Source: Opitutales bacterium
GTDB lineage: Bacteria; Verrucomicrobiota; Verrucomicrobiia; Opitutales; PNEW01
Length of the DNA: 64,000 bases
Direction: 5' to 3'
Assembly: GCA_965197745.1 (NCBI GenBank)
Contig: CBDANS010000006.1
Coordinates: 585,721-649,720, forward strand
The notes beneath the pieces were generated by a model. It did no database searches, was not told the origin of the DNA, and saw only the letters and a list, made by a program, of their open reading frames with translations. Position 1 is the first letter of the stretch. Each line of letters begins with the position of its first letter. The translations under genes and the position numbers were made by a program. Below, in pieces: positions 19,002 through 58,942 of this stretch.

Positions 19002-19725
19002 TTATATCATTTCTTTATTTCTTCTATAGGCCCCATCGATAAAAAACGGGACACAATTGCTGACATTTACCTGCCCTGCCAGTTCTATATCTCGACCCTC
19101 ATTTTTAGCCAATTTTTCTTTTCCCGATCCGCAATTGTGCAGCTTTACCGCGAGTGAGGTCCTGCAATTTTCAAATAACGCTTTTGCGCCCTCGGCCTCA
19201 GGTGAAAGCGTGCCTCCAAAATGTGTAATGATCGCACCTGCTCCTGCCAAGTCCTCAAAGCAGGGTCGCAGCGAATCGTCGTCCCATCGCTCTCCGGCGG
19301 GGACCACTCCAATTTTCCAGCCAAGCTTCATCGCTGATTCCGCAACGACCCGACTATTGCGAAAGCATCCCGCAATAACCGGGGTAGAACCTGCCGCGAG
19401 GGTAATCGTAGAACCGTTTGGCGAAGGAAAGAACGAGACGTGTGATATCCGGCAAATTGACGAGCGACTCCGGAGATAATGTGAACCCATTACGATTTTT
19501 CCTGTCGGCGACTTCCGCCTGCATTTGCTCAGCAAAGGCATAAACCCTTTCATCCCTCCAGCGATAGGGGTAGACGACCGCGCCCTTGCTTACCGCGATA
19601 TCAAGACTGGTGGAGAACGAAAAAATATCGACGATCACTAGAACATCGCAATCGGGAGCGAGAACCGTAACCCCCTGTTCCCCCCATTCACAACGTATGT
19701 CGTATTCGGATTGATCAAATAACAT
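19002..19725 (-). pseudogene. ComB-like 2-phosphosulfolactate phosphatase family gene with a frameshift
   Basis: N-terminal part in the frame of ORF 19354..19725 (..VLVIVDIFSFSTS..FTLSPESL..ITRLVL). Continuation in the frame of ORF 19002..19553 (PSPNGSTITLAAG..VVPAGERW..FEDLAGAGAII). The frame switch is at ~19425-19435. Confidence 0.6.
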
Positions 19726-19744
19726 TAGTATAATTCTGAAGAGA

Positions 19745-20422
19745 TTATTGGATGATTTTATTAAATATCACAGGTAGAAACGTATCCCAGTTATGACCAT
19801 CGGGACAATAATCAATTGTATCTAAATTCTTATAGGAAGACAAAGTATCGAGCGCGAGTGCTTTAGCTCCATCCCAAAAATTAAGATAAGACTCGTATCC
19901 ACACAGGCCACTTTTTTGAGCGTAGGGTTCATCTAATATTATTTTCATATTCTTCTCTAACCATATTTCTCCACGTACCTTACCGAGCCAATCAAAATGA
20001 TTTTTAATATTATCAGGCCATAAGTAGACTAATAATACTGAAATGTTCTCAAAAATTCGGTCTATTCGTAAAAGGTGTGATTTTATATTTTCAACAGCCT
20101 CATTAAAGGTGAAATAGGTTGTTGCCATATTATTGTAAAAGTATCCGTCGATTAAATACACTTTTTGATCCGATCTGGTTAAATTCACCAATGCTTCCCA
20201 TCTTTCGATAAAATCAAAAACTGGAGGGATTTCTCTATAATCCGGTGGTTCTAATAAATGATTAACATCATTAGCTAAGAATACTTCACTATCGATTCCC
20301 CGATCAGAGAGCATTTGTTGAAGTGACTTAACCGAAGTGGTCTTCCCGGATCCGTTTATTCCATCAATAATAACAATTCGATAATTCGGGGTCTGCTTCA
20401 TTATAGATTTTTTGGAGAGCAA
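19745..20422 (-). CDS. P-loop nucleoside/nucleotide kinase-like protein
   Basis: Walker A GINGSGKTT. 225 aa. Confidence 0.6.
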   Translation of the reverse strand: MLSKKSIMKQTPNYRIVIIDGINGSGKTTSVKSLQQMLSDRGIDSEVFLANDVNHLLEPPDYREIPPVFDFIERWEALVNLTRSDQKVYLIDGYFYNNMATTYFTFNEAVENIKSHLLRIDRIFENISVLLVYLWPDNIKNHFDWLGKVRGEIWLEKNMKIILDEPYAQKSGLCGYESYLNFWDGAKALALDTLSSYKNLDTIDYCPDGHNWDTFLPVIFNKIIQ

Positions 20423-20521
20423 GAGGTTTTGATAAAATAAAATATGTTACCCGATCCTGTTTGCTTCAAGCTTCAGATATCTGCTTTCCGAAGAGTTAGT
20501 CTGAAAGTGAGCTGGGAGAGC

Positions 20522-21553
20522 TTAGTATGTCAAAAGTGCTTTCACCACTTTGCGCTGACTGATGGCTACTAAGGCGTCGTTGATTTCATCGATGGGAAAG
20601 CGATGGGTAATGAAATCATCTCCAGAGATACTGCCTTTGCGCACCCACTCGGTGAGTGTCTCTTGTGCTTCTTTCTCAAATAACCGCGTGGGCCATTGGT
20701 GTACGAAGATGTTGTAGTTAAAGTCACCTAATGCATTCGGAACCGTAAATTCCTCAGTTCCCGCGTAAAACCCATAAACACACATGGAGCCACCGCGCTT
20801 CAATAGTGGCAACCCCGCAGGGACGAGTTCCGGCACACCTACCGCATCTACAACGGCATCGAGTTGACGTCCTTTGCTTGCAATCTCCGGGGCGTCGCGA
20901 TCATAGACATCATCAGCGCCGAAACTTTTCGCACGTTCGCGCTTCTCGGGATGTCGATCAACCAGTCCGATCCAACCGAGTCCAAATAACCGGCCTAATC
21001 TCACAAAACTTTGTCCCACGGGCCCACCACCGTAGATCAAAACGTCAACACCCGGTTTTAGATGGAAATCACGAAACGCCCCTAACACTTCGCGCCAAGT
21101 GCAAAACAAAACAGCATCTTCGGGGGAAATGTCACTAGCGACAGGAGTCTGAATCTCAAAAACTTCAACCCAGCCGTGATCTTCATCTGCAACACCGTCT
21201 TGCACCATTGCCTCGTGATCATTTGCTAACACATACTCACAAAACCCACCCCATCCGGATTCTATACCATCCACGCCAAGATCAAACACCAGTCCGCTGA
21301 CCGCGCGTTCATCCACTTTGAAATGGCGCACTTTCGCACCGACTTCCTGAACCAGGCCGACGCTCTCATGCCCCAAGGCGAATGGAAACGCTTTCTCCAT
21401 ACCCGGAAAATGACCGCTAACGAGTTCGCCATCAGTTTTGTTGCAAAGGCAAGCAACTTCTGTTTTCACCAATGCCTGGTAGGGACCCGGTTTTGGAATC
21501 GGCGTGTCGACGATCTCAACCTGTTCTGGTGCGGTGACAATAACGGATTTCAC
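20522..21553 (-). CDS. Zinc-type alcohol dehydrogenase (MDR family)
   Basis: GHESVGLV and Rossmann YGGGPVGQ. 343 aa. Confidence 0.8.
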   Translation of the reverse strand: MKSVIVTAPEQVEIVDTPIPKPGPYQALVKTEVACLCNKTDGELVSGHFPGMEKAFPFALGHESVGLVQEVGAKVRHFKVDERAVSGLVFDLGVDGIESGWGGFCEYVLANDHEAMVQDGVADEDHGWVEVFEIQTPVASDISPEDAVLFCTWREVLGAFRDFHLKPGVDVLIYGGGPVGQSFVRLGRLFGLGWIGLVDRHPEKRERAKSFGADDVYDRDAPEIASKGRQLDAVVDAVGVPELVPAGLPLLKRGGSMCVYGFYAGTEEFTVPNALGDFNYNIFVHQWPTRLFEKEAQETLTEWVRKGSISGDDFITHRFPIDEINDALVAISQRKVVKALLTY

Positions 21554-24477: not shown

Positions 24478-25238
24478 GACTTTAATGCTTCAAAATAAAA
24501 GCGGTGGCTCTGAACATTGAGACTTCTTTTTTCCTGGATCTGCTCATGAATCTTAAATAACCTGTCGCGGTAATTCTCTATGGTGAAATCAGGGAATTGC
24601 CAGGGAATCATCCTTAAGTAATAAACAATTGCGCCAACATCGAGAAACCGTGTTGTTGGAAATGCTTCACCTTTTTCACCTATTTCAAAACCTGCAATTT
24701 CAATTTCCCTTACCGCATTATCTAAATTCCATTTTTCGAAATTTTTGGTAGGATTATCTTGTAAGAGCTCGTTTAACCTGAAGTTGTTTTCTCCACCAAC
24801 TTGTTGCGTTATGAACCGACCCCCACTCTTTAGAATTCGATAAACTTCGTTTGGTGAATACGCTTCATGATGATTTATTACTAATCCAAAGTAATTGTCA
24901 TCAAAAGGTAATGTAAAGTCATCCGTTATCTCAACTACTTGAATACCCAGTGGTTCTAACTTTCTACGAGCAACAGGGACATTGGGTGGGTGCCCTTCTG
25001 TGGCAACCGTATTTTTTGGCAAACCACTTATAGTTGCTAAAAACTCACCCCCACCAGTTCCCATGTCCAACAAAGAAATGTCAGAATTAATTCTATTGGA
25101 AACAATCTCACGATAATTCCAGCTAAGATCTTCTTCTTGGAATCGCCCATCCATAAATGAGAAATCCCATCCCGATATCTCCTGCTTTAAAGCTTCTGAT
25201 ATCAATGATTCGAAAGATAAGTTAAGGGGTGTTGTCAT
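24474..25238 (-). CDS. Class I SAM-dependent methyltransferase
   Basis: Motif I LLDMGTGGGEF. 4-nt overlap with the upstream kinase gene. Confidence 0.8.
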   Translation of the reverse strand: MTTPLNLSFESLISEALKQEISGWDFSFMDGRFQEEDLSWNYREIVSNRINSDISLLDMGTGGGEFLATISGLPKNTVATEGHPPNVPVARRKLEPLGIQVVEITDDFTLPFDDNYFGLVINHHEAYSPNEVYRILKSGGRFITQQVGGENNFRLNELLQDNPTKNFEKWNLDNAVREIEIAGFEIGEKGEAFPTTRFLDVGAIVYYLRMIPWQFPDFTIENYRDRLFKIHEQIQEKRSLNVQSHRFYFEALKS

Positions 25239-25793
25239 TAGGGGAAATTGAATACAATTTCAAATCATGGAGAACGCCGTTCCTCTCGCGAGCTTTTTTC
25301 AATACCCCTTCATAACACATCCCTGACTTTTCAAGCACCCGGGATGATGCATTGTTGTCCATCATACAAGTTCCTTCAATTCGTTTGAGCTTCAAATTAG
25401 TGAATCCATAATCGATCACTTTCCGCGTTGCTTCAGTAGCATACCCTACGCTCCAATATTGCCTGGAGATTCCGAATGCAATCTCAGCTTTCTTTTGAAC
25501 AGGATTAAACGAATGAAAAAAGCAGTATCCAATAACTTTTTCAGATTCGATCAAGACTATCGACCAGGAGACAACATCAGAAAACATTAAAAACGAAATA
25601 AATTTATGGGTGTCATCTATAGATTTATGGGTGTTCCAAAAAGTATATTTGTCAGCTCTGAATCCGATGCGAATTCAAATATATCCTGAGCATCCGCGCT
25701 GTCTATTTTTCTCAATAGTAACCGGGAGGTTTGAAGTGATTGAATTGCTATTGTCGTAAGCTCTGCTCTTTTGACTTTGTTATTTTGCCTCAT
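25222..25793 (-). pseudogene. RimJ/RimL-like GNAT acetyltransferase with a single-base frameshift
   Basis: The ATG at 25793 opens MRQNNKVKRAELTTIAIQSLQTSRLLLRKIDSADAQDIFEFASDSELT, then hits a stop at 25617. A second frame continues KYTFWNTHKSIDDTHKFISFLMFSDVVS...WSVGYATEA... (ORF 25222..25587). One extra A in the A3 run (plus-strand TTT at 25648-25650) would restore a ~190-aa GNAT. Confidence 0.7.
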
Positions 25794-29370: not shown

Positions 29371-29847
29371 CTAAAAATGGGTTTGAAGAAAACTTTGAAT
29401 TTGCAGCGCAATCGGTGTTGTCACATCAGAGGGCAAAGGGTTATCGACTTTTTCACCCAGTCCGGAAAACACGCGTGGACCTATTAGTTTTTCAGGCCAG
29501 TCTTTTCCCCTGGCGATTACATGAAAATGAACGTGATGGAATCCCTCCATTTCCGCTAATTGAATTACGTATTCTTTTTCTGTATCTAATAACGTGTGTA
29601 ATGCTTCACAAACTGACTTCAGCAACTTACTCAATTCTGAATATTCAACTTCAGACAATTCGTGAAGCGCTTGGCAATGCCTCTTTAAAACAAGGACTAA
29701 CCATCCCTTAATGGAAGTAGGATCACCGTGTTCAATAATCCAATGTGATGTCTCAAATATTCTCGGCGCATTGCTTAGACTGATCTTACCTTGTAGATTC
29801 TTACAGGATTTGCATTGGTCGTCATACTGGGAATTCATAGTGGTCAT
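29371..29847 (-). CDS. HIT (histidine triad) family protein
   Basis: Histidine triad FHHVHFHVI. Confidence 0.8.
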   Translation of the reverse strand: MTTMNSQYDDQCKSCKNLQGKISLSNAPRIFETSHWIIEHGDPTSIKGWLVLVLKRHCQALHELSEVEYSELSKLLKSVCEALHTLLDTEKEYVIQLAEMEGFHHVHFHVIARGKDWPEKLIGPRVFSGLGEKVDNPLPSDVTTPIALQIQSFLQTHF

Positions 29848-29881
29848 AATTTTATAAATTTATATTTCATGTTCACTGGGA

Positions 29882-30706
29882 CTAATCCAGCTTCCTGTTT
29901 TTATTCATCCAATCTACGGCATAATCGACAATTTTTCTCATTTTGAACATCTTAACCTGAGCGTTTCCGACTACACCCTGAATTAATTCGGGGTTGCCCT
30001 TCTCATAGGCCATACCGATTTCCTCAAAATCATATCCATACCAGTAAATGTCATCGTACCATGTCCACTCAACCCGGTTATTCTTTATTAAGGGGGCTCC
30101 TCGCTTACATTTTTTCTGCTCGGCAAATTTGCACCGATATTCTGACAGGTGAAAGGCTGTATTGTTACTGTAACCCGTCCCTATTAGTAGAACAGTGGCG
30201 TCCAGATCATAGAGACGAGCCAATGGAGACGTTTCTCCGGCACTCATACTCAGGGAGTGATTATCCGTAATGAAGTTGGCATTTTTACCGCGAGCTCCCC
30301 AGGAAACAAAAGGGTGATGCGAACGGATCGTTCCTTTCTGATGCATGAAACAGTCAACAATCATCCCCATTTTACGCGCTGGGGTCATTTCAGGATAGAA
30401 TGGTGGCATATTCTCTCTTATAGTCTGAATCCAATCCGATGGAACGGCCGGACTGGCCCAATCTTCGGGATCTGATAAATCCGCGCTGTGGGTTGGCATA
30501 GCAAGGGTCCCCTCCGGCCCCAGGATATTTTCTAATGCTAATATCACAGAGACAGGTCCCCCTACGACATAGCCCATTGAACTCAGGGAGGAGTGCACGA
30601 TCAATGTCATGGCGGATTTTACGCCAAGTTTTTTAAAGTCTTCTGTCAGCGAAGAAATAGTGTGCGGAACTTCCGTTTGCCCGATTACTTTTATCAACTT
30701 TGTCAT
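29882..30706 (-). CDS. AAC(3)-family aminoglycoside N3-acetyltransferase-like protein
   Basis: LGVKSAMTLIVHSSLSSMGYVVGGPVSVILAL, GTLAMPTHS, RSHHPFVSW, VLLIGTGYSNNTAFHLSE. Colinear with the Antibiotic_NAT family. Substrate untested. Confidence 0.75.
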   Translation of the reverse strand: MTKLIKVIGQTEVPHTISSLTEDFKKLGVKSAMTLIVHSSLSSMGYVVGGPVSVILALENILGPEGTLAMPTHSADLSDPEDWASPAVPSDWIQTIRENMPPFYPEMTPARKMGMIVDCFMHQKGTIRSHHPFVSWGARGKNANFITDNHSLSMSAGETSPLARLYDLDATVLLIGTGYSNNTAFHLSEYRCKFAEQKKCKRGAPLIKNNRVEWTWYDDIYWYGYDFEEIGMAYEKGNPELIQGVVGNAQVKMFKMRKIVDYAVDWMNKNRKLD

Positions 30707-30713
30707 TTTATGA

Positions 30714-31283
30714 TTAGCCAGGGCTTTGGTTATTACTGGTTAATTTAATTATTTCCTCTGTTGTTTCCTCAGGTGTTTTTCCCTTTGTATGGATTGTTAA
30801 TTTAGCTAAATCATAGTTGGAATGGTGTTCCAGAAAATGAAGATTAATATTAAATATCCCATCAGAATCCACTTCTATTCGATCATTTAATGTTTTAAAT
30901 GACTCAGTCAAATTCGGTGAGGGAAGAAGCAAAATGACATTACGAAAATCTGCCAGGACATCTTTTATTCGCTCAAATAATTGATCATTTTCATATACAG
31001 AATGGCCACCACCAAAATCAAAAACGCAACTGTCATTATCATTGAGAATCCTTTCAATCGCATACGCTTCAAAAGGTTTCCAATACCGGTATAGACCATC
31101 AAAGAATCCTAGTTTTTCATTAATCGTTTCAGCTAATTTTCGGTCATAGCCAATTTCGTCATAGTACTTCCATCTTAACTCGTCGACATCACATAGAGTG
31201 ATATTCAGCTTTTTCGCTATCAATTCTCCCACCGTGCTTTTACCTGTCTGGATGGGGCAAATAAGAACTATTTCGTCACGCAT
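30714..31283 (-). CDS. P-loop kinase (shikimate-kinase/AAA-like)
   Basis: Walker A-like CPIQTGKST. 189 aa. Confidence 0.6.
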   Translation of the reverse strand: MRDEIVLICPIQTGKSTVGELIAKKLNITLCDVDELRWKYYDEIGYDRKLAETINEKLGFFDGLYRYWKPFEAYAIERILNDNDSCVFDFGGGHSVYENDQLFERIKDVLADFRNVILLLPSPNLTESFKTLNDRIEVDSDGIFNINLHFLEHHSNYDLAKLTIHTKGKTPEETTEEIIKLTSNNQSPG

Positions 31284-31329
31284 TGATTGAAAGGGGTCAG
31301 CATTTTATAATCGTTCATTGATCATAGTG

Positions 31330-31806
31330 CTAATGCAAGGGCATGACAAAAGCCAGAAACGGCTTCTTGCGTTCCATCGGTTCTACGGCAAATCCCATCG
31401 AGATCTTCAGTTGCTGGTTCTCGGGATGCTCGTTATTGCTGACGGATCGCACCTGGTAACAGCCAAGCTCCCTTGCCCGCTTCAGCGTTCGCTCTTGCAG
31501 CGCCCTGCCGATGCCTTGGCGTCGATGTGTTTCATTAACGCCAAAGGCAATAATTTTGGCCTCCGTCAGTGTGCGCCCATTAAGTTGAACGGGCTCATGG
31601 CCACGGTCATGGGGACCAATCTCCCACACCACGAACATGAGAAAACCCACGACTGTGTCATCTTTTAACGCTGCGAGAAAATAACGTAAAAATTGTTCAA
31701 AGAATGTGTCAAAAGCCCAACCCGTTTGATTCTCTCCAGCGATGGTTTGAACTAAATCGTCCCAACGCGGATGCGCAGGTGTCCATTCTTCAATTGCTAC
31801 ACTCAT
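31330..31806 (-). CDS. GNAT N-acetyltransferase
   Basis: HRRQGIGRALQ motif. Start taken at the internal ATG (MSVAIEEW...). Confidence 0.75.
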   Translation of the reverse strand: MSVAIEEWTPAHPRWDDLVQTIAGENQTGWAFDTFFEQFLRYFLAALKDDTVVGFLMFVVWEIGPHDRGHEPVQLNGRTLTEAKIIAFGVNETHRRQGIGRALQERTLKRARELGCYQVRSVSNNEHPENQQLKISMGFAVEPMERKKPFLAFVMPLH

Positions 31807-32387: not shown

Positions 32388-32395
32388 TCACTATT

Positions 32396-46304: not shown

Positions 46305-46509
46305 GATATAGCTATTCAAAAAATTCTGATTTTATACCCCCACTTACTGGTTACTGATCACTATACTATTCAATCGACTATCTTCATTTGGCAATCGATA
46401 TCACCTCATCGGTGCTATGATAAAAGAAATGCCCATTCGTAACGCATTTATTGTTTCTCCCCTCCGGGGCCAATCAAATAAATTGCTCACTCCTCAGGCA
46501 TTGAGGTCT

Positions 46510-47187
46510 TTAATAATTTTTCTTACCGGTTATCAGCTTCCTCTTTACTTCGCGTTTTACCCGCGCGGAAGTCACCGATTCGTTGTCAGCGAGGAATTGT
46601 TTAACGGCCTTCCGATCCCACGAAACAAGCATACGTAGGGCCCAGCTGATGGCCTTCTGGACCATTACGCTTTTATCTGAAACTAGTATCTGACAGATCA
46701 TTAAAGTACGAGCGCTGTCCCCGTTCCCACCCCTTGACTTGGTGTTGAGGGGGATGGTTGCGACAACCGCAGCTCTCCTCCACCACTGATCTTTAGATCG
46801 GCTCCAGCATCGAATGTTTCCATCCGACAGCTGACCATTTTGCCAGGCCTGTCCCACCAGGGTGCAGCAGAAAAAATCGACCCACCCCCAGTTATCGATA
46901 CCGGCCCCAAGGGTTTCAATTCGTTTGATAGTCAGCGATTCACGGGCTTCGCGATGACCGGCGATTAACTCGTAGGCGACGTTCCTGCACACTGCGAGCT
47001 TGAGCTTCAACAGCGCCAAGCCAAGCTTACATATAAATTCACCGCTTTCGTCCTTGAGCTTCGACTTATATATTCGCACGACCCTATGACGGTCTTTTGT
47101 GTATAGCCGTGACCTACGGCTGAATTGACGAAGCGTTTCTCGAATCTCTTTCGCGGTTTTATTAATTTTTAAGGAATCGGTGGTCAC
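46510..47187 (-). CDS. DNA alkylation repair (AlkD-like HEAT-repeat) protein
   Basis: ..WWRRAAVVATIPLN.. and ..DKSVMVQKAISWALR.. patterns. 225 aa. Confidence 0.6.
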   Translation of the reverse strand: MTTDSLKINKTAKEIRETLRQFSRRSRLYTKDRHRVVRIYKSKLKDESGEFICKLGLALLKLKLAVCRNVAYELIAGHREARESLTIKRIETLGAGIDNWGWVDFFCCTLVGQAWQNGQLSDGNIRCWSRSKDQWWRRAAVVATIPLNTKSRGGNGDSARTLMICQILVSDKSVMVQKAISWALRMLVSWDRKAVKQFLADNESVTSARVKREVKRKLITGKKNY

Positions 47188-47253
47188 AGAATAATTTATA
47201 AACGGGTCTCATTTTCAAGGTCAATGGTGTCGACTCGCTGTCTAGCGAATCCC

Positions 47254-48054
47254 CTATTTGTGCGTCTCATCAAGGCACGGCTTTCCCCATAAAACTTGCG
47301 TTTTTACCTGGTATCTTAACAAACCATCTTCAACAAAGGGTAGAAGAATTTTCTCCATTTTATGGTCAAATTCTTTTTCTTTGATTTTTCCCATGCCTTC
47401 TACTGAAAGAGACGCTCTCGAGTGTTCCGCATTTATGAATTGGTCCAGGGATTGATTGAAATTGTAAGGTCCCATTGTGCGATTCCCTGTAAGCTTAAAG
47501 CAACCCGAGTTCTCTAAAGCTTTTAGCGCATCAAATGGCACATAATCCTTATATGTTGAATACTCAGCAATCAGGTCATTCCGGAATTTTCCCCATGGGA
47601 CATTGCAGGGGCCATCTCCATCCATAATCACCAGGGAACCCGTTGGATGAAGCGCATCTTTGAATTTTTGAAAAACCAGATTCAAGTCCATCCAATGCAA
47701 ACTGGCTCCGATGACAATCAGGCCATAGGGTGGATTGAGCAGGGCTTCTTCAATTTTAGCGTGGATCCAGCAAATTTTAGGGTTGTCGCCACTTGGCAAT
47801 GTTCTTCCCAGTCGGATCATTTCTTCCGAAAAATCAACGGCATCGATACGATCAGCTTTTCCTGTTAATAGTCGAGCAATTTTACCTGGACCACTTCCCG
47901 CATCGAGTACCGATTTCGCATGCTCAGGGATTTTCTCTATTAAAAAATCCATTATCTCTTGATCGTAAGGGGGTCGAAACCCATACCGTTCCACAACACT
48001 TTTAGATTTGAAGCGAATTGCGTGCTCATGATCTACCGTGTTTACAATAGACAT
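47254..48054 (-). CDS. Class I SAM-dependent methyltransferase
   Basis: Motif I VLDAGSGPGKI and IDAVDFSEEMI. Confidence 0.8.
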   Translation of the reverse strand: MSIVNTVDHEHAIRFKSKSVVERYGFRPPYDQEIMDFLIEKIPEHAKSVLDAGSGPGKIARLLTGKADRIDAVDFSEEMIRLGRTLPSGDNPKICWIHAKIEEALLNPPYGLIVIGASLHWMDLNLVFQKFKDALHPTGSLVIMDGDGPCNVPWGKFRNDLIAEYSTYKDYVPFDALKALENSGCFKLTGNRTMGPYNFNQSLDQFINAEHSRASLSVEGMGKIKEKEFDHKMEKILLPFVEDGLLRYQVKTQVLWGKPCLDETHK

Positions 48055-48169
48055 GAACTGCTAATCTCTCGTATCACTGACCGTTAAAAGCAGATCGTGT
48101 AATAAACGACGCTTTTCAATGTCCAAGCGAATATGAATATCAGGTGCCTTATATTTTTCAGTCATAAGA

Positions 48170-48961
48170 TTATATGGCCGTCGCTTTGAGACTGAAAGTA
48201 CAGGGGTACAATTCAATTTTATCAAATTGGACATCATAAGGGGTATAACCATTATAAAGATACTGCGGGAATTCATGGAGGAACTCTATTCTCATGCCAG
48301 CTTCGCAAAATGCGGTAATAAGCTCTCCCAAAGTCCAGTGCCATTCGTAGGAAGGGGTCGGTATTTTAAAATCCGGATCAGTGTAATCACCCATGTTTTC
48401 GTACTGCCACACCTTCTTGCGGAAATAACTTCCCTGAATAGTACTGGCGCTTGATGATCCCGCTTCATCAAGCATGACGCTTCTGAACGGATGCCCGTCA
48501 TAAATATAGAAAAATCCGTTGTCATTTAATAATTGCCGCGCGGTCTGAGCATACTGCTCAAGGTCCGGAATCCAACAGAGCACCCCGGTAGATGAAAAAA
48601 CAATATCATATTTTTTATTCACTATATTCTTTACATCCACAATATCCGCCTCGATAAACTCCGCCCCAATGCCCATTTGTTCCGCGATCAAGCGTGCGTA
48701 TTTCAATGATTCGGACGAAATATCTATACCGGTCACCTCAGCCCCGAGCAGTGCCCAGGACAGGGTATCGGTTCCGATATGACAGAGCAGATGCACCAGT
48801 GATTTGCCCCTGACATCACCGACCTCTTTTTGTAAAAGGTCATTCAATAATGGTTTACCGGCTATCAAGGTGTCCGTATCATAATTCTTATAATGGATTT
48901 CTGCCAGGCCATCCCATGCCTTTTTATTTGCCTGGGTCATATGCTTCATTGATTGCTCCAC
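48170..48961 (-). CDS. Class I SAM-dependent methyltransferase
   Basis: LVHLLCHIGTDTL.., VTGIDISSESL, YDIVFSSTGVLCW. Confidence 0.7.
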   Translation of the reverse strand: MEQSMKHMTQANKKAWDGLAEIHYKNYDTDTLIAGKPLLNDLLQKEVGDVRGKSLVHLLCHIGTDTLSWALLGAEVTGIDISSESLKYARLIAEQMGIGAEFIEADIVDVKNIVNKKYDIVFSSTGVLCWIPDLEQYAQTARQLLNDNGFFYIYDGHPFRSVMLDEAGSSSASTIQGSYFRKKVWQYENMGDYTDPDFKIPTPSYEWHWTLGELITAFCEAGMRIEFLHEFPQYLYNGYTPYDVQFDKIELYPCTFSLKATAI

Positions 48962-49000
48962 GGGATTGGCCTTTGTGTGAATATTTTCAACCGATCCTGA

Positions 49001-49369
49001 TCAGGCAGGTTTCCTATAGGCCCGACTGGATATTTGAATAGAATTTTTACCGGGACCTTTCGCGTTTGAAAAAATGTACCCTTGCACCTGATGAACAGCT
49101 CCAAATTTAAGTCCGTTTTTTGCGCATTTATCGCGAAATTTCTCCACATCTTTTATATCGAAGACCAGCTTTACACAGGCTTGTCCATCCTTTATTCCTT
49201 TGCCCGCGGGGTGGATCATCAAACTCGCCCCTCCATGAGCAGGCAGTAGTTCCAGCATGCTGGTACCTTCTTCGACCAGGGATTTAAAATCGAAGTGCTT
49301 TACATAAAAAGCCGCCATCTTTTCGACATTTTTGGCATAAATCATAATCTTATTGATGGCTGGCTTCAT
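49001..49369 (-). CDS. VOC family protein
   Basis: 122 aa. IMIYAKNVEKMAAFYVKHFDF is a typical first beta-alpha module. Confidence 0.7.
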   Translation of the reverse strand: MKPAINKIMIYAKNVEKMAAFYVKHFDFKSLVEEGTSMLELLPAHGGASLMIHPAGKGIKDGQACVKLVFDIKDVEKFRDKCAKNGLKFGAVHQVQGYIFSNAKGPGKNSIQISSRAYRKPA

Positions 49370-49812
49370 TTTTTTCCCTTTAGTCGCTTAAATTCTTCAT
49401 TGAGTGTCTTATTCTGGAACGGAGTAAAAGCCAGCTCCAGTTTCATCCCATCCGGATCCTGGAACCATACTCCGTAGTATCCTGGGCTATAGTTCATTTC
49501 GCACGGAGCATCCAGAATTTCGGCGCCCATTTTCTTGAGAATATCGTATAGCCTGTCCACGTCTTCCCGTCTTTCGGCGTTCCAGGCCATGTGGCTGAAC
49601 CCCGGAGATTCCCTATCGTACTTTTTCCCGTGTCCCGCTTTTCTTGTCCGCACCAAAATCAAGTCGCCTATCCCGATCTTTTTTCGGTAGAGAATCGATG
49701 CCTTCATTCGGTGATGCTTTTCGTATCCAAGAAAATTGCATATGGGGTCATAGAATATTTCTGACTCATCCAGATTCCCGACACGAAGCTCAATATGGTT
49801 TATGAGTGTCAT
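49366..49812 (-). CDS. VOC family protein
   Basis: INHIELRVGNLDESEIFY.. and FQDPDGMKLEL. 4-nt overlap with the next VOC gene. Confidence 0.75.
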   Translation of the reverse strand: MTLINHIELRVGNLDESEIFYDPICNFLGYEKHHRMKASILYRKKIGIGDLILVRTRKAGHGKKYDRESPGFSHMAWNAERREDVDRLYDILKKMGAEILDAPCEMNYSPGYYGVWFQDPDGMKLELAFTPFQNKTLNEEFKRLKGKK

Positions 49813-49889
49813 TGATTCTCCGGATTCTAACGATAGCGGTCAGGCACGAGAGCGCTAGACCGAATTGTCCCCGCACTTTTGATTCGATT

Positions 49890-50408
49890 CTATTTATTCA
49901 GCAACTCGGAGATAATGGCATCAACAACCTTCCCCAACTTGCTGAGCATGGCAAACTCCTTATCGACAACCGAGACAAATGACTTTGGCGTCATCGGGCG
50001 GAAGCATTTCACCGGCTCGAGGGCGTAGCGGGTATTGATTTCGTAACCCTTCTCCTCAAGTATATCGCCACACCGGCGAAGGAAAGCCTGACTGAAATCC
50101 TTCTGCCCGAAACCGGCACGTGACTTTCCCGCCTCGATGTGAAAGACGAAGGGAACCTCGCCTTTCTCATGATAGGATTTCGCCATCCAGGATTCGAAAT
50201 GCAGCCCATTTCCTTTCTCGTTAAACCAATTTGACCTGTAGAGTTGAAATCCAGCCCCCTGGGGAGATGTATCATTGGGATACAACCCCGCGTTGATTAA
50301 CCAGGTATTCTGGATAGCCTTGCGTTTTGAAAGTTTCCTTTCAGCTTCCTTGTATCCATCCCCATAGAACCGGTAAATATCCGCGGTCTCTTCCTTAACC
50401 TTTTTCAT
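49890..50408 (-). CDS. Hypothetical protein (172 aa)
   Basis: Clean ORF in the array orientation. No motif recognised. Confidence 0.5.
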   Translation of the reverse strand: MKKVKEETADIYRFYGDGYKEAERKLSKRKAIQNTWLINAGLYPNDTSPQGAGFQLYRSNWFNEKGNGLHFESWMAKSYHEKGEVPFVFHIEAGKSRAGFGQKDFSQAFLRRCGDILEEKGYEINTRYALEPVKCFRPMTPKSFVSVVDKEFAMLSKLGKVVDAIISELLNK

Positions 50409-50573
50409 AGCTTCCTTTCAAAAGAATGGCTGGCAGCGTTTACGCCTCTGCCGATTGGGCATCCTATTCTTGTATGCGGCAGGATCAAGAGAATTTATAA
50501 ACGCGCATGCTGAAACCTGTTGGTGTGAACCTGGCAGCGCCATTCTACTGTAATATGTCAACAAGCTCTCTAT

Positions 50574-51272
50574 TTATCCTTCCCCAAAGATTTCCAGCAA
50601 CTCAGCTAATTCTTTGATTACCGATACTCTCTCGTCAACTTTGTGATCTTCCGCTATTCGATTAACCCAGATTGCCTCAAGTCCAACTTCCATTGCTCCT
50701 TCTATATCACGTTCATAACTGTCTCCTATCATGAGAGCGATCCGGTTACGATGCAGATCATTGAGGATCGCCTCAAAGTAATGTTGATTCGGCTTTTCAA
50801 ACCCGATCTTTCCCGAGGTATACACCGCTTCAAAATAGCTCAAGATTCCTAACTGGTTTAGAATATCTGAAAGCTCCGGTATATGATTGGAAGCTATGAC
50901 ATGAGAATACCCGCATTGCGATAGTTTTTTCAGAATGTCTTCAGCTTATGGTACCAACTGATATCCATGATTAAGTAGTATTTCCTCTCGCAAACCCTTG
51001 GCAAGTTGGTGCGCTACCGCTTCTGAAACGCCATTCGCTATCATCGCGGACGCGATTTTATAATTTAGAAATTCCCAGTAATTCTTACCGTTGAAAAGAT
51101 CGACGTGCGGTACTTCAGGTGTGTGCCAGGGAAAACCGTAGTCCAGTTCCTGCCGAATGCTATCAATGTCGATGTCTGAGTAGCCTGAACGGTTGAGAAG
51201 CGATCGGGTAGCTCTCGACCATAACCACGGAGCGTCTGCCAGGGTTCCATCAAAATCCCATAAGATATGCAT
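50574..51272 (-). pseudogene. HAD-IA hydrolase interrupted by an in-frame TAA
   Basis: Motif I WDFDGTL is in ORF 50946..51272 (ends ..GYQLVP*). The same frame continues AEDILKKLSQCGYSHVIASNH...GKIGFEKPN...GDSYERDIEGA (motifs II-IV). The TAA is at 50946-50948. Confidence 0.75.
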
Positions 51273-51310
51273 TTTTTTTGCGTGGATCGGTTAGGTCTGT
51301 CGTAGCGGGG

Positions 51311-52048
51311 TTAAGCGCAGTCGGGCCGCAGGTCGATGTATCGCTCGCCACGCTCACCGGCCTCGCCCCGCACGAGATAGACCGGGATCTTATGCTGGTC
51401 CACGTCAACCCACGCGGTATCACTGCTGCAGTAGCGAATCGTATATCCCGCTCGCCTTCGATCGCTGCGGTTCGTTTCGCTGGAGTGCAGCAAATAAGAA
51501 TCGTGGATAGACACACTCCCGGCCGTCATCCGGAGGGTGACGGCACCTGCTTCCATCTCAGCGGTTACGATGATCTTTTTGCTCAGCATATCATGTGTCT
51601 CCGACGGTATGGTAGCGTGTTCCCGATACCCCAGGTGCGATCCCGGGATTACCATCATAGCGGAATTTTCGGTGTCGGCATCATCGATGGCTAGCCAGAC
51701 CGAGACAACATCGGTGCCCTGAACACTTGGCCAATAGGGATTGTCCTGGTGCCAGGGAACGGTATCCACGCTGCGCGGCGGTTTAATGAATACACTGGAG
51801 AAAACCAGAACCAGATTAGGACCCAGCACCGATTGTACCGCGTCCAGCAACCGCGGTTGCCGACAGATTTCGAGCCAGCGCTCATCACGTGAATGCGGTT
51901 CATCAAGATAATTGTCATTTCTCAGCATCCCCTTCTCGGTGGCCTCGTTCAGGAGACGCCGATTCGATTCCACTTCCTCCGGACTGAACACGCCCGGATA
52001 CAGGCAATACCCTTCTTTAGCGAAACAATCCGGATCATGATTCAGCAC
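51311..52048 (-). CDS. Phytanoyl-CoA dioxygenase (PhyH) family Fe(II)/2-oxoglutarate oxygenase
   Basis: VPWHQDNPYW, IDDADTENSAMMVIPGSH, HDSYLLHSSETNRSDRRRAGYTIRY. Confidence 0.75.
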   Translation of the reverse strand: MLNHDPDCFAKEGYCLYPGVFSPEEVESNRRLLNEATEKGMLRNDNYLDEPHSRDERWLEICRQPRLLDAVQSVLGPNLVLVFSSVFIKPPRSVDTVPWHQDNPYWPSVQGTDVVSVWLAIDDADTENSAMMVIPGSHLGYREHATIPSETHDMLSKKIIVTAEMEAGAVTLRMTAGSVSIHDSYLLHSSETNRSDRRRAGYTIRYCSSDTAWVDVDQHKIPVYLVRGEAGERGERYIDLRPDCA

Positions 52049-52125
52049 CTACATTTCCTGTCAGCTAGTGGAGTATTGTGGGATCATTGGTTTTCTCGCC
52101 CAGGTGACTTTAATCATTCTGACTT

Positions 52126-54156
52126 CTAAAGATTTTTTTTGAGAAAGTCTTCGATTTTCGCATAAAATTTGAACCGCTTTTTTTCATCGATAAAGCCATG
52201 GCCTTCCCAGTTTTGAAGATATACTTTATGCGGTTTGCCCTCTTTTTTTAATGCCGTGATAAGTCTTTTAGCCTGGAGGGTATCAACGGTATAGTCGGCT
52301 CTGCCATGAATTATTAAAAGGGGTGCCTTAATACGGTCTACAAAATTTATCGGCGAAACTTCGCGAATGGCATCCGTATCTTTTTGAGGATCACCAAACC
52401 AAAGTTTGAGGACATCATAGGCGGACGCTCCAAAGTAGCTTTCTGTCTGCTTTTCTCGCTTTTCTTTATTAAACTGTTCAACCCAATCGTAGACCCCCGC
52501 GAAAGAAATAGCACATTTATAAAGATCGGGGGTAAAAGTAAGCCCACATAAAGTTATATAGCCACCAAAGCTTGCGCCGTAGATAGCAATGCGCTCTGGA
52601 TCTGCGATTTTCACTTTGATAGCCCACCGGACACCATCGGTGATGTCATCTTGTACTTTTTTACCAAATTGACCACGCGCTGCCTCTCTATAGTATGTCC
52701 CGTACCCTGTGGAGCCCCGATAGTTAATTTGCAGAACAGCATAGCCCCGACTTGCCAGAAATTGTACCTCCGAGTTAAATCCCCATACATCGCGGTAAAA
52801 TGGTCCCCCATGAGCCATCACAATCATAGGGAGTGGCCCCTTTTTTTTGCCTGGTGGTAGAGTAACATAGCCATGGATCTTCATTCCATCCCGTGCTTTA
52901 AAAGTGACACTTCGCATCTGGGCCATTTTCAAAGGATCGATCCAGGGTTTTGCTTTAAATATACGCTGAAAGTTACCTGTATTAAGATCGTATATATAAT
53001 AAGATCCTGGATCGCGATCACTGCTCACAAAAATAAGAAAACGGGTTTCCTCCCAATTGACATCTATAATTCAATTAACGGTATCAGGTAGTGCTTGATC
53101 AATACCAAGTTGCAATTGCCTGTAAAAAGGGTCAATCCAGTGCGTCGTTCGCTTTTCCCGGGTATAATGGATGCCAACCAATGCTTTTTTCTTTTTAGAG
53201 AAAAATAAAGATGCGGGTATTTGATAAATAAAAAATTTTCCTGATGTAACATCATATTCTCTGTCACTAAAAATCAGTTCTCCGAGTTGCTGATTTTCAA
53301 GATCGTAGTTATAGAGTGACAAAACATTATGATTGCGGTTTGTCGCAACGTAGAGGGTTTTACCGCCATATTCAAAAGCGACAGGATCCAAATCTGGTGG
53401 TAAGGGTAATTTGTCCCATGGAAGATCTTCATTTTTTCGATAAATATATGTTTCATTACCCTCATTAAATGACCTCTTCTTATAACCAACTCCCATCCTC
53501 AAAAATCCTTCTGGATCGCACATCCATGCATCCACATAACCGGGATTTTCTTCTTTGATAGGATAGTAACCACTGCCTGGAGCCATGGGGCCATGCTGGC
53601 GTGCATCTCTCAAGTAATTCATTTGGTGGACATGTGGTTTATGAAATCTCTCGGAAAAAAACTGAATGAGTATTTTATTAGGTAGGTCGTCTTGCAGGTC
53701 TATAACCGATGCATAGTTTTCAATATCAACCAGGGTTCTTATTGGTTTTCCAATGCGATTAACGGAATACAACCCGTAATAATACTGGCCCCACTTTGTG
53801 ACATTAAAAATTAAATTATCGTTATCAGCCCAATAAAACTGCCGAATATGGAGGCCCATCCCTGTTCTTATACCAATAATCTTTTTCGTATTCAGATTAA
53901 GTGTAAATAACTCATAACTGTCATTTATATAACCAATATATCCGACGTGCTCCCCGTCAGGAGAAAGAGATGCATTTGAGAAAAGTGTTGCTCTAAAAAA
54001 GTTTTCAATCGGCTCGGGTTCTGCTTCGAGGAAAGATATACTGAAAAATACTAAGCCCGAAACGATTACTTTGATCCCAAAAGTTGCGACTTTAATCATT
54101 CTGACTCCCCCAATCTTTTGTTTATACTTAACAAATTCCCAGCGTTTTAGCGGCAC
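52126..54156 (-). pseudogene. S9 prolyl-oligopeptidase-family peptidase interrupted by an in-frame TGA
   Basis: Beta-propeller half in ORF 53071..54156 (ends ..ALPDTVN*). The same frame continues IIDVNWEETRFLIFVSSDRDPGSYYIY into ORF 52126..53028, which holds the catalytic half (GASFGGY Ser, HGRADYTV Asp, WEGHGF His). The TGA is at 53071-53073. Confidence 0.75.
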
Positions 54157-54180
54157 ATAAAAATATACAATATCTAATAC

Positions 54181-57100
54181 TCACTCGATTGTTATCTCTT
54201 CCACCGTAACGGTTAATTCCTCACCATCGGCGTTTACAAATGTGGCGACGATGCTTTGCGTTGGTTGTGCCGTTAGGTCAGACTTAAAATTGTTCTGCGA
54301 AATCAGGGTATCGAATCCAGGTGCTGTCGATCCGCTCGGTGCGATCACGATCGAGGCACCGTTAGACTGAGAAAGATCACCCCCCGTGATGCGCATCCCG
54401 GGATTACCCGCGGGTATGGTAAAGGACCCATCACTAAATAAAAGGTAGGGGACTGCATCGCCACTGGCATCGATGTCACCTACGGTTAACCGCACGGCTA
54501 TCGGGATTCCACTGGCATCAAATCCAATCTTACCTGAACTGCCACTAAATACCGCGTTCGAGAGTTGTACGCCACCCAAGCCTGTAGAGTTGATCACCTC
54601 TACGAGCGTGACATCAGCTTCAGCATCATAGACCTGTCCCTCGGGGAACAATGCCTGGTTCACGGCATTGATCCTTCCCACCGTGAAGATACTGAAGAAG
54701 GTACTCGCGTCGGCTTCTTCGATCAACACGCTCGGTTTGCCTGTAACATACATTACCTCCTGGTTGTAGCGAGGCGGCGGGGCGGGGGGCAGGTAGGTGT
54801 CCGGATCTAATGTAATCGTAAATGTACCGCTGCCCGAAAATTCTACCTGTACAATGTCCTCGTCTTCATCCATGAACGAGACCCGTGTGATCTGCCCTGG
54901 CTTGGCCTGAAGTCGGATGGACTCCCCGGTTAACAAGACCTGGTCGAACACGTTCCCGTTAGGATGCTGGATGTCCTCACCGGCAATATCTCCCGAGCCG
55001 TCAAGCACGAGGGGTAGAGGCGGAGCCGATACGGTAATCACCGCGGTATCACTATTGGTGCTCCCTCCAGCATTGGTTACCTCTACCCAGAAGTTGGTGC
55101 TATGGGTAAGAGCACTGATGGTGAAAGTGTTGCTCGTAGCACCGGCGATGGGACTGGCGGTATTACCGCTGTTGCCGGTATACCATTGGTAGGTGAGATC
55201 ATCGCCAATTGCTGTCACTGATAGGACAACCGCGGTACCGGACTCTACTTCCTGGCTCGCAGGTTGGGATGTGATCGAGGGAGTACTGGGACCTTCCCCG
55301 TTAATAGAATCGGTAGTGAGACTGAAGACATAAGCTGAGCCGGAATCCTCACCGTTGTCATCGTCTAACCACGCTCCGACTACCACGGTGTCACCGCTTA
55401 TATCTACCGACCCAAAAGAGTTAAAACGCGCGCCATCGCTGGCTAATAGCTTAGTTACTTGGCCCCAGTTGTCAGCACCGCCTGTGTTGCGCTCAAAAAT
55501 ATAAGCTGAACCGGAATCAGTTCCGTTGTCATTGTCTCCGGTAGCTCCAACCACCACCGAGTCGCCGCTGATTTCGACCCACCCCCCAAAAATGTCACCC
55601 TCTCCGCCATCGATGGCAAGCAGTTTGGCAACCTGACCCCAGTTGTCAGCACCGCCCGCGTTTCGTTCAAAAATGTAGGCAGAGCCGGAATCAGTTCCAT
55701 TGTCATCGTCCAAATCTGCGCCCACGATCAAAGTATCTCCGCTGATCACAACATGATTGCCAAACACGTCTTCTATTGCGCTGTCATTTGCAGTTAGTTT
55801 TGTAATCTGTCCCCAATTGTTATCACCCCCTAAATCGCGTTCAAATACGTAAGCAGAGCCGGAATCGAGGCCGTTGTCATCGTCATAGAGAGCACCTACT
55901 ACTGCCGTGTTGCCGCTGATCGCTACTTCCCAGCCAAATAAGTCACCTTCTGCGCCATCGCTGGCCAATAGCTTAGCGACTTGGCCCCAATTATCGATCC
56001 CCCCTGGTCGCGTTCAAAAATGTAAGCCGAGCCAGAATCACTGCCTTTGTCATCGTTACTGTCAGCCCCGACTACTAACGTATTCCCGCTGATCGCAGTG
56101 GATTTACCAAACAAGTCACCCGGCGCACCGTCACTGGCAGTTAATTTGGTTAATTCAAGGTCAACTATATTTTCTAATATCTCGATCACCAGGTTGTAGG
56201 AAGTGCGAGTCGCTCCATTAAAACCTAAGATACGGAGGAAGTAGATCTCACTCGTCCCCACAACCAGAGATATGTGCTCGTTGTCAGTATCAGTCCCCGA
56301 AAAAGTTACCTCGTTTAAGTCCCCATCGTAAAGAAGTAGATCTAAGTCACCTTTTTCCTGGCTGAACAAGATGCTTACATTTAGCCTACCCTTTGCGCTT
56401 GTTGTGAGGCGGTAGTAATCTTCCTCACCATGAACATGAATCGACAGATCATTCTCTGTATATTCATTAATTATCCCCAGTTCTGTCGCTGTTTCAAAGC
56501 TGTTATTGGGTTCGAATTGATCACCTGAACCTACTAAGTTTACACCAATATCTCCCAATATTGCCAAATCCAGATCTGATATTTTTTCACGTCTATCAGA
56601 GAAGGCAAATTGAGCCATTAAATCAGAAAGTAGAACTTCACCAGGACGAGGTGATGAATTCCCAACGTGAGAAATAGATCCAAAAGTTAAAGGAACCGGT
56701 CCACCGTAGACCATCATTGCCATAGGCCCCGTAAAAAAGAAATTTGTCCCATCAAAGTTTATTAACTCGTCATATGTCGTTATTATGTTGTGAGCAGGGA
56801 GTTCGCCAGTGGTTTCATTTATAAAAACTGCAATTCCAAATATATGCCCAAACTCATGCAAGATAGTCGAATAAGCATCAAATGAGCCAAACGGAATGCT
56901 ATCCGTGCGTTCAGTAGGATTTGGATCAAACCATAATTCTCCATTGGTTAATGAATTTATACTAATTGTAATAAACCCGTCTGGTCTAGTTTCATTAAGG
57001 TCAATCCCAGTTCTTATTTCAAAGATCGAATTTGGTTCAACATTGATACGCGTGCCATCATTGCGAACAAAAGCGCTATTGGCAGCACCACCTGTTGCTA

Positions 57101-57377
57101 ACAGGTCTGTCTCAAATTTATTGAATGCAACTTCAATTTCAATTGAGGGTTCCCCTTCAACCTCAAAATACTGAACCCAATCATTCGCAGCAGCTAGAGT
57201 ATGGGATTCGATAACTGAATAAAATGCAGAAAATTCTGCTCCCGGATCATTAAAGGAGACCGAGAATGTTACCTGTCCTTTAGCATTTTGAGGAAATGAA
57301 ATTAATAAGAAAGCTAATGAGCAGATAAAAAGAATACCGGCTAAATGGGCTTTTTTATTATTCTGACAACACCCCAT
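54181..57377 (-). pseudogene. ~1060-aa secreted zinc-metalloprotease / PPC / FG-GAP-repeat / Ig-like protein with a homopolymer frameshift
   Basis: ORF 55923..57377 has a signal peptide, HEFGHIFG (HExxH), a PPC-like GDQFEPNNSFETATEL..DYYRL, and the first FG-GAP unit ..SGSAYIFERDQGG. ORF 54181..55968 continues in another frame as IDNWGQVAKLLASDGAEGD..., with 5 more SGSAY(I/V)FER units. The switch is in the G6 run (plus-strand C6 at 55999-56004). Confidence 0.75.
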
Positions 57378-57613
57378 CTTGTCACTCTAGTTATTTCGGT
57401 AATGAAGATAATGGGGATGTGTTAAAATGTTTCCATTCTCTATTATTAGAGAACGCATTAAGATTTATTAATGCACCTTCGAATAAAAAAATAAAGACCC
57501 TAACCATACTAACGACTTATATATATTATTAGTATTGCTAAAATGTTAAATTGCAACCCATACTAGATTAACAAACGTTAAGACATTAAATTTATACTTG
57601 AAACGCACATAAA

Positions 57614-58162
57614 ATGAGCCGCTGGTGGGTTGTCATTGTTGTATTATTTTTTGTTGGCACTGTATTGGGGAAAGAAAATGACCCACTATTCGATTTAAAA
57701 GTGCGCGCTGAAAAAGGAGATGCAGAAGCGCAATATAACCTTGGCGGGTGGTATTTAGAAAGACAGGGAGTAGCTAATTATCCGGAAGCTTTCAAATGGA
57801 TCAATAAAGCAGCTGAACAAGGGCATCCTGGAGCTCAAACTAACCTAGGTTTCATGTACGCCCAGGGTCTCGGAGTAAAACGTGATAATATAGAGGCAAG
57901 CAACTGGTATAGCCAGTCAGCCGAGCAGGGATTACTTAAAGCACAGTACGGACTTGGTTTAATGTATGCTAACGGCCAAGGGGTAAAGCAGGATTACATC
58001 GAAGCTTATAAGTGGCTACGAATCGCAGCAACAGCGGGAGATAATTCAAGTTCAAGGGTTTTAAGTAACCTTAATTCCTCTATGACCACATCGCAAATTA
58101 CCGAAGCTGAACAAAGAGCTGCGACATGGCTGGCTAAACAAAAAAAACAGTCGCTTAAGTAG
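57614..58162 (+). CDS. Secreted Sel1-repeat (SLR) protein
   Basis: Signal peptide, then repeated ..AEAQYNLG..Y..G.GV..., KWINKAAEQGHPGAQTNLGFMYAQGLGV units. Confidence 0.85.
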   Translation: MSRWWVVIVVLFFVGTVLGKENDPLFDLKVRAEKGDAEAQYNLGGWYLERQGVANYPEAFKWINKAAEQGHPGAQTNLGFMYAQGLGVKRDNIEASNWYSQSAEQGLLKAQYGLGLMYANGQGVKQDYIEAYKWLRIAATAGDNSSSRVLSNLNSSMTTSQITEAEQRAATWLAKQKKQSLK

Positions 58163-58192
58163 GAAAACTCCAATTTTTGTATTAATTCAAAT

Positions 58193-58942
58193 GTGAACAC
58201 TATTTTAAGCATGAAACATTGGCTATCGATTATTGTTTTTCTTACTCTGGTCATAGTTGGATGTGGAACAAAGGATGACCCCTTAAGGGAATTAAAAGCA
58301 CAAGCAGAAAAGGGTGATGCCGAAGCCCAATTACTCCTGGGATTGAAATATGAATATGGGGATGGCGTAACCAAGAATTATCCTGAAGCACTTAAGTGGG
58401 TTCGTGCGGCCGCTGAACAAGGATACGTTAAAGCCCAAAACGAACTTGATTTAAAATATTACCTGGGTCGTGGTGTAATGCTGGATTATGAAAAGGCCGT
58501 GATGTGGTATAAAAAGGCAGCCGAACAAGGGTACTCTGAAGCTCAATCCAACCTGGGCGTTATGTATTCCATGGGTGACGGTGTGAAGCAGGATTACGAT
58601 GAAGCGAGTAAATGGTATCGCTGGGCGACCGGTCAAGGACCGGTTGAAGATCAGGACGTACTTGATGAGCGTTATGGTATTGACCAGGGGGTAGTGCGAA
58701 ATGATTCCGGGTATGTCAATCAACCCCGTAATTCGGATGATCAGGATTTTGATGAGTTGCTCGAGTCGGCTGAAAGCGGAAACGCTGTCGCACAATACGA
58801 TGTTGGAGTAAAGTATTTAAAAGGCCAGGATGTAGATCAGGATTTTACCGAGGCTTTTAACTGGTTTAAAAATCGGCTCGGTTTAGAGCGGGCCAACCGC
58901 TGGTCAGACATGGGATTGAGGACGATGTATATCGGAGATTAA
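58193..58942 (+). CDS. Sel1-repeat lipoprotein
   Basis: Lipobox LVIVGC. Sel1 units (KWVRAAAEQGYVKAQ.., WYKKAAEQGYSEAQSNLGVMY). The 3' end loses the repeat pattern, which suggests a frameshift into the next ORF. Confidence 0.75.
   Translation: MNTILSMKHWLSIIVFLTLVIVGCGTKDDPLRELKAQAEKGDAEAQLLLGLKYEYGDGVTKNYPEALKWVRAAAEQGYVKAQNELDLKYYLGRGVMLDYEKAVMWYKKAAEQGYSEAQSNLGVMYSMGDGVKQDYDEASKWYRWATGQGPVEDQDVLDERYGIDQGVVRNDSGYVNQPRNSDDQDFDELLESAESGNAVAQYDVGVKYLKGQDVDQDFTEAFNWFKNRLGLERANRWSDMGLRTMYIGD

Follow-up and report, generated by a model that had tools for sequence, protein, structure and literature searches.

We analysed a stretch of 64,000 nucleotides (nt), here called the window, from contig CBDANS010000006.1 of an Opitutales bacterium, which carries a long array of small genes. 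Within positions 19002-59571, a stretch of 40 kb, 13 of the 46 loci are disrupted, or roughly one gene in four. The evidence below makes it very probable that dispensable genes have recently decayed here under relaxed selection, through genuine lesions that are fixed in the population. A first-pass annotation, made from the sequence alone, had counted at least eleven disrupted genes within ~38 kb. Twelve lesions could be confirmed against intact homologues or full-length family profiles, a Sel1-repeat gene is probably disrupted as well, and all positions given there for homopolymers and stop codons proved correct when checked on the sequence. The features concerned are the following (IS, insertion sequence; TPR, tetratricopeptide repeat; ORF, open reading frame; aa, amino acids).

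19002-19725, minus strand: ComB-like 2-phosphosulfolactate phosphatase pseudogene; +1 frameshift in a T3 run (plus-strand AAA 19428-19430)
25222-25793, minus strand: GNAT1 (Acetyltransf_3) pseudogene; frameshifted at A3 25648-25650, in frame with A4
34004-35712, plus strand: TPR protein pseudogene; frameshift in TATAT at ~34184-34188
37899-38433, minus strand: AAA_33 P-loop kinase pseudogene; frameshifted at G3 38274-38276, in frame with G2
39040-39753, minus strand: 3' fragment of an APH-like kinase; ~225 codons, with ~170 N-terminal codons gone
39754-41047, minus strand: decayed IS3-family element; orfA at 40739-41005, orfB twice interrupted
41042-41560, plus strand: TPR-like gene, probably 5'-truncated; its reading frame is open from the edge of IS3
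41707-43274, plus strand: IS4-family element; transposase frameshift at TCTCTC 42931-42936
44258-45359, minus strand: APH/EcKL-like kinase pseudogene; frameshifted at G5 44975-44979, in frame with G4
45411-46157, minus strand: GNAT2 (GNAT_acetyltran, PF12746) pseudogene; in-frame TAA 45864-45866
50574-51272, minus strand: HAD hydrolase pseudogene; in-frame TAA 50946-50948
52126-54156, minus strand: S9 prolyl-oligopeptidase-family pseudogene; in-frame TGA 53071-53073
54181-57377, minus strand: secreted FG-GAP/Ig_7 protein; frameshift at G6 55999-56004, repaired length 1065 aa
58211-59571, plus strand: Sel1-repeat gene present as two ORFs, probably disrupted; lesion within 58866-58945

We called a locus a pseudogene where its two fragments show homology to adjoining stretches of a single intact protein or profile; this holds for 12 loci. 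Within the window, tblastn gave self matches only and so no reference paralogues for the split genes. The 30 other array genes that were tested have domain matches from end to end. None of the ~20 loci in 1-19000, assessed from gene-call lengths and Pfam names only, looks disrupted, which differs from the frequency in 19002-59571 (Fisher p = 0.006).

For the frameshifted genes, the two fragments match adjacent parts of one profile and repair of the frame gives one higher-scoring match, which means that each is a single broken gene. The repaired ComB-like gene has a single 2-ph_phosp match (profile 15-223) at 48.4 bits versus 41.6 for the fragment, repaired GNAT1 matches Acetyltransf_3 over profile positions 1-137 (108.9 versus 81.4 bits) and the repaired AAA_33 kinase matches its profile over positions 2-122 (32.6 versus 25.4 bits). 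The repaired APH-like gene forms a gapless 69% alignment across 359 aa with an intact 362-aa orthologue. In the FG-GAP gene, the repaired junction restores the repeat consensus FERDxGGxDNWGQ. The run lengths that the first-pass annotation had proposed as repairs (A4, G2, G4 and G7) all fit, and the G7 allele is present in a sister strain. In the TPR gene, 150 homologues (~540-590 aa) align from residue ~12 of the downstream frame, and their alignment begins at their own residue ~40-60, which coincides with the frame switch at ~34186. The frameshift parts an ORF with a signal peptide from the body of the gene. The TPR gene also lies on the strand opposite to the array and has 54% GC, compared with ~43% in its surroundings. 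Horizontal acquisition, followed by the frameshift, is probable for this insert.

The genes with in-frame stops can likewise be read as single genes. The PF12746 profile runs across the TAA of GNAT2 (positions 6-240 of 243), and the HAD_2 profile does the same in the HAD gene (1-178 of 178). The S9 read-through protein is covered to 96-100% by more than 100 homologues of ~640-680 aa, and the TGA falls between the propeller and the catalytic domain. As the column of the stop is variable among these homologues and Arg occurs in it, a one-step change from CGA to TGA is plausible. For the Sel1-repeat gene, a frameshift at A5 58868-58872 on the plus strand had been suggested. Since its second ORF opens in the middle of a repeat, with neither a start codon nor a signal peptide, the gene is probably disrupted, but the junction of ~80 nt is degenerate in both frames and the A5 run could not be established as the site.

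We then compared the window with near-identical contigs, which were found by exact-protein look-ups in other ENA assemblies and in Logan. Contig ctg245946_36x_l of ERZ25072076 (3.1 Mb; the 36x contig) carries every lesion. It matches the window in five segments, 12558-33562 (21,005 nt), 39042-53458 (14,417), 1-19741 (19,741), 53452-64000 (10,549) and 29723-39050 (9,328), with 12 single-nucleotide polymorphisms (SNPs) and no gaps overall in about 66 kb. At 53452-53458 it has an insertion of 41.8 kb between copies of the 7-bp direct repeat TTCATTA, and at 39042-39050 a 3.16-kb IS1595-family element (L097 90-3245), which is absent from the window. As these two insertions set it apart from the window, the 36x contig is a separate consensus. 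The 41.8-kb integrative element, which has a tyrosine integrase and an HTH_17 gene at one end (L003 1-4597; L087 1-1670), sits inside the S9 pseudogene and is missing from the window and from the 7x strain described below. The IS1595-family element carries an N6_N4_Mtase/Mrr_cat fusion as a passenger gene and has the 9-bp direct repeat AATTAAAAG on its flanks.

A second contig, ctg251924_7x_l of ERZ25072670 (L002; the 7x contig), is 99.7-99.9% identical to the window and shares all of the lesions that it covers, except G6 in the FG-GAP gene. For run ERR13605531, the Logan contigs show 5-10 SNPs and no gaps relative to the window; they bear the APH frameshift and the GNAT2, HAD and S9 stops, each of which is present in 4 assemblies. 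The AAA_33 frameshift is common to the 7x and 36x contigs, the ComB-like and GNAT1 sequences are the same in the 36x contig, and the region of the TPR frameshift is gapless against L096 and L097. The lesions are real at the consensus level and older than the strain divergence of 0.03-0.3%. A methyltransferase that is whole in the window and in the 36x contig is split in the 7x strain by a tandem duplication of 7 bp (GCACCCC) at position 48579, which is either a new pseudogene specific to that strain or an error due to low coverage.

The first-pass annotation had seen in the homopolymer frameshifts a sign of sequencing or consensus error. If long-read assembly had produced them, the genes would in truth be intact. 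This is suggested by the location of five of the ~8 indel sites in homopolymers of 3-6 nt and by the indels that the 7x contig has of its own (the 7-bp duplication at 48579 and a change from C6 to C4 at 55582). However, we consider it very unlikely, as 3-4 assemblies, set apart from one another by SNPs and structural variants, have identical indel states. By the error profiles of HiFi and Oxford Nanopore reads, A3 runs, G3 runs and dinucleotide repeats are not prone to error at a coverage of 36x. Longer runs in the same genes, of 7-8 nt, keep the frame: a frameshift coincides with only 1 of the 63 coding homopolymers of at least 6 nt and with none of the 14 that have 7-8 nt. This pattern is the opposite of an error signature. 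As a control for the assembly pipeline, relatives whose contigs are named in the same way, one of them at only 21x, have intact genes across 21 kb; the 21x assembly, of the same kind, is free of fragmentation. Assembly error also leaves the three stops, the truncation and the IS events unexplained. While the same gapless indels in separately assembled contigs speak against the earlier reading as error, the accompanying view that the stops and the truncation are genuine, recent decay was supported and holds for the frameshifts too.

Two IS elements lie in the disrupted region. The IS4 element is bordered on both flanks by the 11-bp direct repeat AGGCCTGACCC. After repair of its transposase, Nostoc plasmid IS4 transposases align unbroken over residues 79-484, with the junction at ~401. 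The APH-like kinase fragment corresponds to residues 178-400 of 401-aa homologues and adjoins the end of the IS3 element, where the kinase is truncated. The TPR-like ORF at 41042-41560 (plus strand), which faces away from the opposite IS3 end, is probably another 5'-truncated gene, although the indications for this are weak. Truncated genes at both ends of the IS3 element suggest an IS3-associated deletion. The ORF at 43301-44176 was considered as the lost N-terminal half of the kinase, across the IS3-IS4 block, and was rejected because it has no kinase similarity and no family match.

The orfB of IS3 is, as had been noted before, doubly interrupted, by two insertions of ~30-40 nt at ~40310 and ~40139. 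With both insertions removed, it matches positions 1-368 of 369 in the NCBIfam transpos_IS3 profile. The two insertions (~40299-40340 and ~40128-40165) resemble each other (CCGAGGAGC..GCGACGACA..GCGAAGC), as if one short sequence had been inserted twice. The overlap of orfA and orfB carries A AAA AAG at ~40745, the canonical programmed -1 site of this family, and the shift between these two frames is normal programmed -1 frameshifting and no lesion.

The programmed site in IS3 and the catalytic motifs still present 3' of the lesions favour another reading, in which the split genes are functional, through programmed frameshifting, stop-codon read-through or production as separate polypeptides. 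However, the other seven indel sites have no slippery heptamer or common motif. The in-frame stops are TAA twice and TGA once, both of which are ordinary terminators across the window, and the orthologues have codons for Tyr or Gln at these positions, with no recoding signal. In addition, the downstream fragments lack start codons and are passed over by gene callers, and the relatives have single intact genes. Functional split genes are for these reasons extremely improbable.

For the FG-GAP gene only, the poly-G tract may be thought of as a phase-variation switch, i.e., a contingency locus, through which a protein that is secreted or exposed at the surface would be turned on and off. The window and the 36x contig both have G6, while the 7x strain has G7, which is in frame. 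The protein combines a signal peptide with FG-GAP and Ig repeats of adhesin-like character, and a second homopolymer at 55582 is also variable between strains. On the other hand, G6 and G7 are short for efficient slippage, and the strain with G7 is broken elsewhere by a separate -1 at 55582, which means that the gene is intact in neither strain. The 7x contig is, moreover, the lowest-quality assembly, and the orthologous region is fragmented in a more distant relative too (L004, see below). A switch at this locus is therefore unlikely. Beside the tract, at 56021-56085, a 65-nt patch has ~35 mismatches to the 7x contig (L002), while the gene is otherwise 99.7% identical. The FG-GAP repeats are 174 nt long, and gene conversion between them would account for such a patch.

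For three of the genes, GNAT2, the APH-like kinase and the S9 gene, orthologues in related genomes were compared. Two relatives, L094 (4.49 Mb) and L095 (5.05 Mb, circular), keep the gene order methyltransferase, glyoxalase, DNA_alkylation, GNAT_acetyltran and APH-like. Had the split ORFs been genuine separate genes, they should be separate in relatives as well, but in both of these genomes GNAT_acetyltran (248 aa) and the APH-like gene (362 or 346 aa) are single and intact. The GNAT2 orthologues have TAT (Tyr) at the position of the TAA in the window. At the place syntenic to the array, L094 and L095 have seven PhyH paralogues in a row. Relative to L094, the ratio of nonsynonymous to synonymous substitution rates (dN/dS; pairwise NG86, with dS of 0.6-1.2) is 0.26 for GNAT2 and 0.22 for the APH-like gene, as compared with 0.11 and 0.18 for intact neighbours. 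Since the broken genes barely exceed their intact neighbours in dN/dS, the inactivation would be recent relative to the divergence of the species; the values fit this and support it, short of proof. The decay had previously been called recent for its well-preserved motifs, and the only slight rise in dN/dS agrees with this, the lesions being older than the strain divergence.

Other members of the clade show decay of the same genes. The related contig L004 has the FG-GAP/S9 gene order in common with the window, at 76% nucleotide identity and a similar GC content of ~45%. Its S9 orthologue has Gln at the position of the TGA in the window and two frameshifts of its own, and its FG-GAP orthologue region is also fragmented. 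In the sister genome L005, the S9 segment is missing. The APH-like gene is found in other clade members as fragments of 243 and 203 aa, and an ADH gene as fragments of 140-272 aa, compared with 327 aa when intact. The S9, APH-like and ADH genes have thus been broken independently elsewhere in the clade. The housekeeping genes beside the broken ones in L004 (rplM, rpsI, argCJBDFG) are intact. Copies of IS3, IS4 and IS1595 are frequent, and L004 also has split genes.

The parallel loss of S9, FG-GAP, APH-like and ADH genes in several related genomes, and the fixation of the lesions across strains, are what would be expected if, after a shift in niche, modifying enzymes had become costly or harmful and selection had favoured their inactivation. 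Yet the broken genes are functionally unrelated and include IS transposases, and relaxed selection predicts parallel loss equally well. Adaptive loss thus seems improbable, and we infer that relaxed selection and drift are the cause.

The host is an uncultured low-GC marine member of the Opitutales (Verrucomicrobiota). The argG gene of the related contig is 97% identical to that of the metagenome-assembled genome (MAG) CBDCNV01 and 89% to that of Opi.OSU.00C, which places the clade within the Opitutales. A scan of GTDB with the S9 protein did not find a close relative. Opi.OSU.00C is a planktonic single-cell genome from the Sargasso Sea with 39% GC (PMC6003095). It is distinct from the tunicate symbiont 'Ca. 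Didemnitutus mandela' (39% versus 51.9% GC), and a link between the clade and that symbiont was rejected.

The array in which most of these lesions lie contains ~60 small genes at ~850-57400 and is ~60 kb long, with nearly all genes on the minus strand. According to Pfam, these genes encode small-molecule-modifying enzymes, numerous GNAT acetyltransferases among them, together with five APH-like kinases and one AAC(3). Further families are S-adenosylmethionine (SAM) methyltransferases, HAD phosphatases, VOC/glyoxalases and AAA_33/SKI kinases, and the remaining ones are GrpB, HIT, NUDIX, PhyH, YCII and DNA_alkylation. With its co-oriented acetyl-, phospho- and methyltransferases, phosphatases and VOC enzymes, the array may be likened to an arsenal for the modification of antibiotics or xenobiotics, which is unusual in itself. 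The array genes appear to be dispensable, with many of them under relaxed selection. An integron cassette array was ruled out, as there are no attC-like repeats and no repeat family between the genes; the spacers of 5-100 nt are unrelated and share no common repeat. Scans of the window for tRNAs and Rfam families gave no match, and its coding span is ~93%.

Long intergenic regions are few (1686-2307, 5554-6191, 9742-10386, 11772-12250 and 62815-63208), and all are built of one repeat family. This family consists of a GC hairpin, CGGACGCG-ACGA-CGCGTCCC followed by TCCAT, of tracts with a strict 8-nt period, of the motif TTGTCATTGCGAGG and of the inverted repeat CAATCCAGGCGAAT...ATTCGCCTGGATTG. 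The copies are up to 95% identical across 200 nt and may represent a miniature inverted-repeat transposable element or a regulatory module. At and past the right end of the window, a DUF6772 gene (window position 63611 onward; L087 11829-12733) is called as 205 + 72 aa and may be split as well.

The lesions can be accommodated in a simple sequence of events. Selection on many array genes would have been relaxed, after which ordinary mutations would disable genes one by one. The frameshifts would stem from strand slippage in short repeats (A3, T3, G3, G5, G6, TATAT and TCTCTC), with indels of 1-2 nt, and the stops from single-base nonsense changes; of the latter, TAT to TAA is borne out by the orthologues and CGA to TGA is plausible. 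IS3 and IS4 would have inserted, with an adjacent deletion taking the 5' ends of two genes, and the IS elements would have decayed in turn.

Several points weigh against pseudogenisation under relaxed selection. The compared assemblies probably stem from one study and perhaps from one technology, and as the comparison was one of consensus sequences, with raw reads outside it, a fully systematic indel error is formally possible. For the stops and the IS events, systematic error can be excluded. Furthermore, with a dN/dS far below 1, the broken genes do not by themselves demonstrate neutral evolution after inactivation, and the density of pseudogenes was assessed in accessory regions. The lineage as a whole would seem prone to erosion. 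We tentatively entertain the possibility that the window shows a lineage caught early in genome erosion, to which a switch in the FG-GAP gene might be a minor addition.

If the lineage is indeed at such an early stage, the successive steps of gene loss could be followed in the long-read contigs as in a natural time series, and this in a lineage that is not known for such loss. The series would lead from intact genes in the relatives of 4.5-5.05 Mb, through single fresh lesions in the window, on a contig of at least 3.1 Mb, and multiple independent lesions in L004, to L005, which lacks the segment altogether. Several near-complete long-read genomes of the lineage represent differing stages of loss, and the window would offer a clean, cross-validated case of a dispensable block for detoxification or modification that erodes by slippage, nonsense mutation and IS insertion, and then by deletion. 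In the annotation of this MAG, the loci should be labelled as pseudogenes rather than 'corrected', and their fragments should not be counted as separate genes. The resistance-like genes among the broken loci (GNAT and APH-like) would, judged from their reading frames, not be functional.

The process is a known one, of which this is a new instance without a new mechanism. Pseudogenes accumulate under relaxed selection or small effective population size in Sodalis glossinidius and Mycobacterium leprae. As in such pseudogene-rich bacteria, we find frameshifts at short repeats, single-base nonsense changes, IS insertions and IS-associated deletions, with motifs still recognisable, intact orthologues in relatives and remnants that are eventually deleted. 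What is described here, by contrast, is an accessory island of ~40 kb. Within the Opitutales, 'Ca. Didemnitutus mandela' has accumulated pseudogenes to the point of a coding span of 64-69%, at 51.9% GC (PMC5698493). In contrast, the coding span here is ~93%, and the nearest named relative, Opi.OSU.00C, is planktonic.

Three other known systems resemble parts of what we observe. The junctions of the split ORFs in mononucleotide runs are like long-read frameshift artefacts, whereas the recurrence of the lesions across assemblies and strains, the unaffected long runs and the presence of nonsense and IS events alongside are unlike them. The A AAA AAG at the IS3 orfA/orfB junction, and that junction only, is like the programmed -1 frameshifting of the IS3 family, but the orfB of the same element carries two disabling insertions. 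Finally, the FG-GAP poly-G tract differs by one base between strains, as in contingency loci, but unlike these it is only 6-7 nt long and lies in a gene that is broken in both strains.

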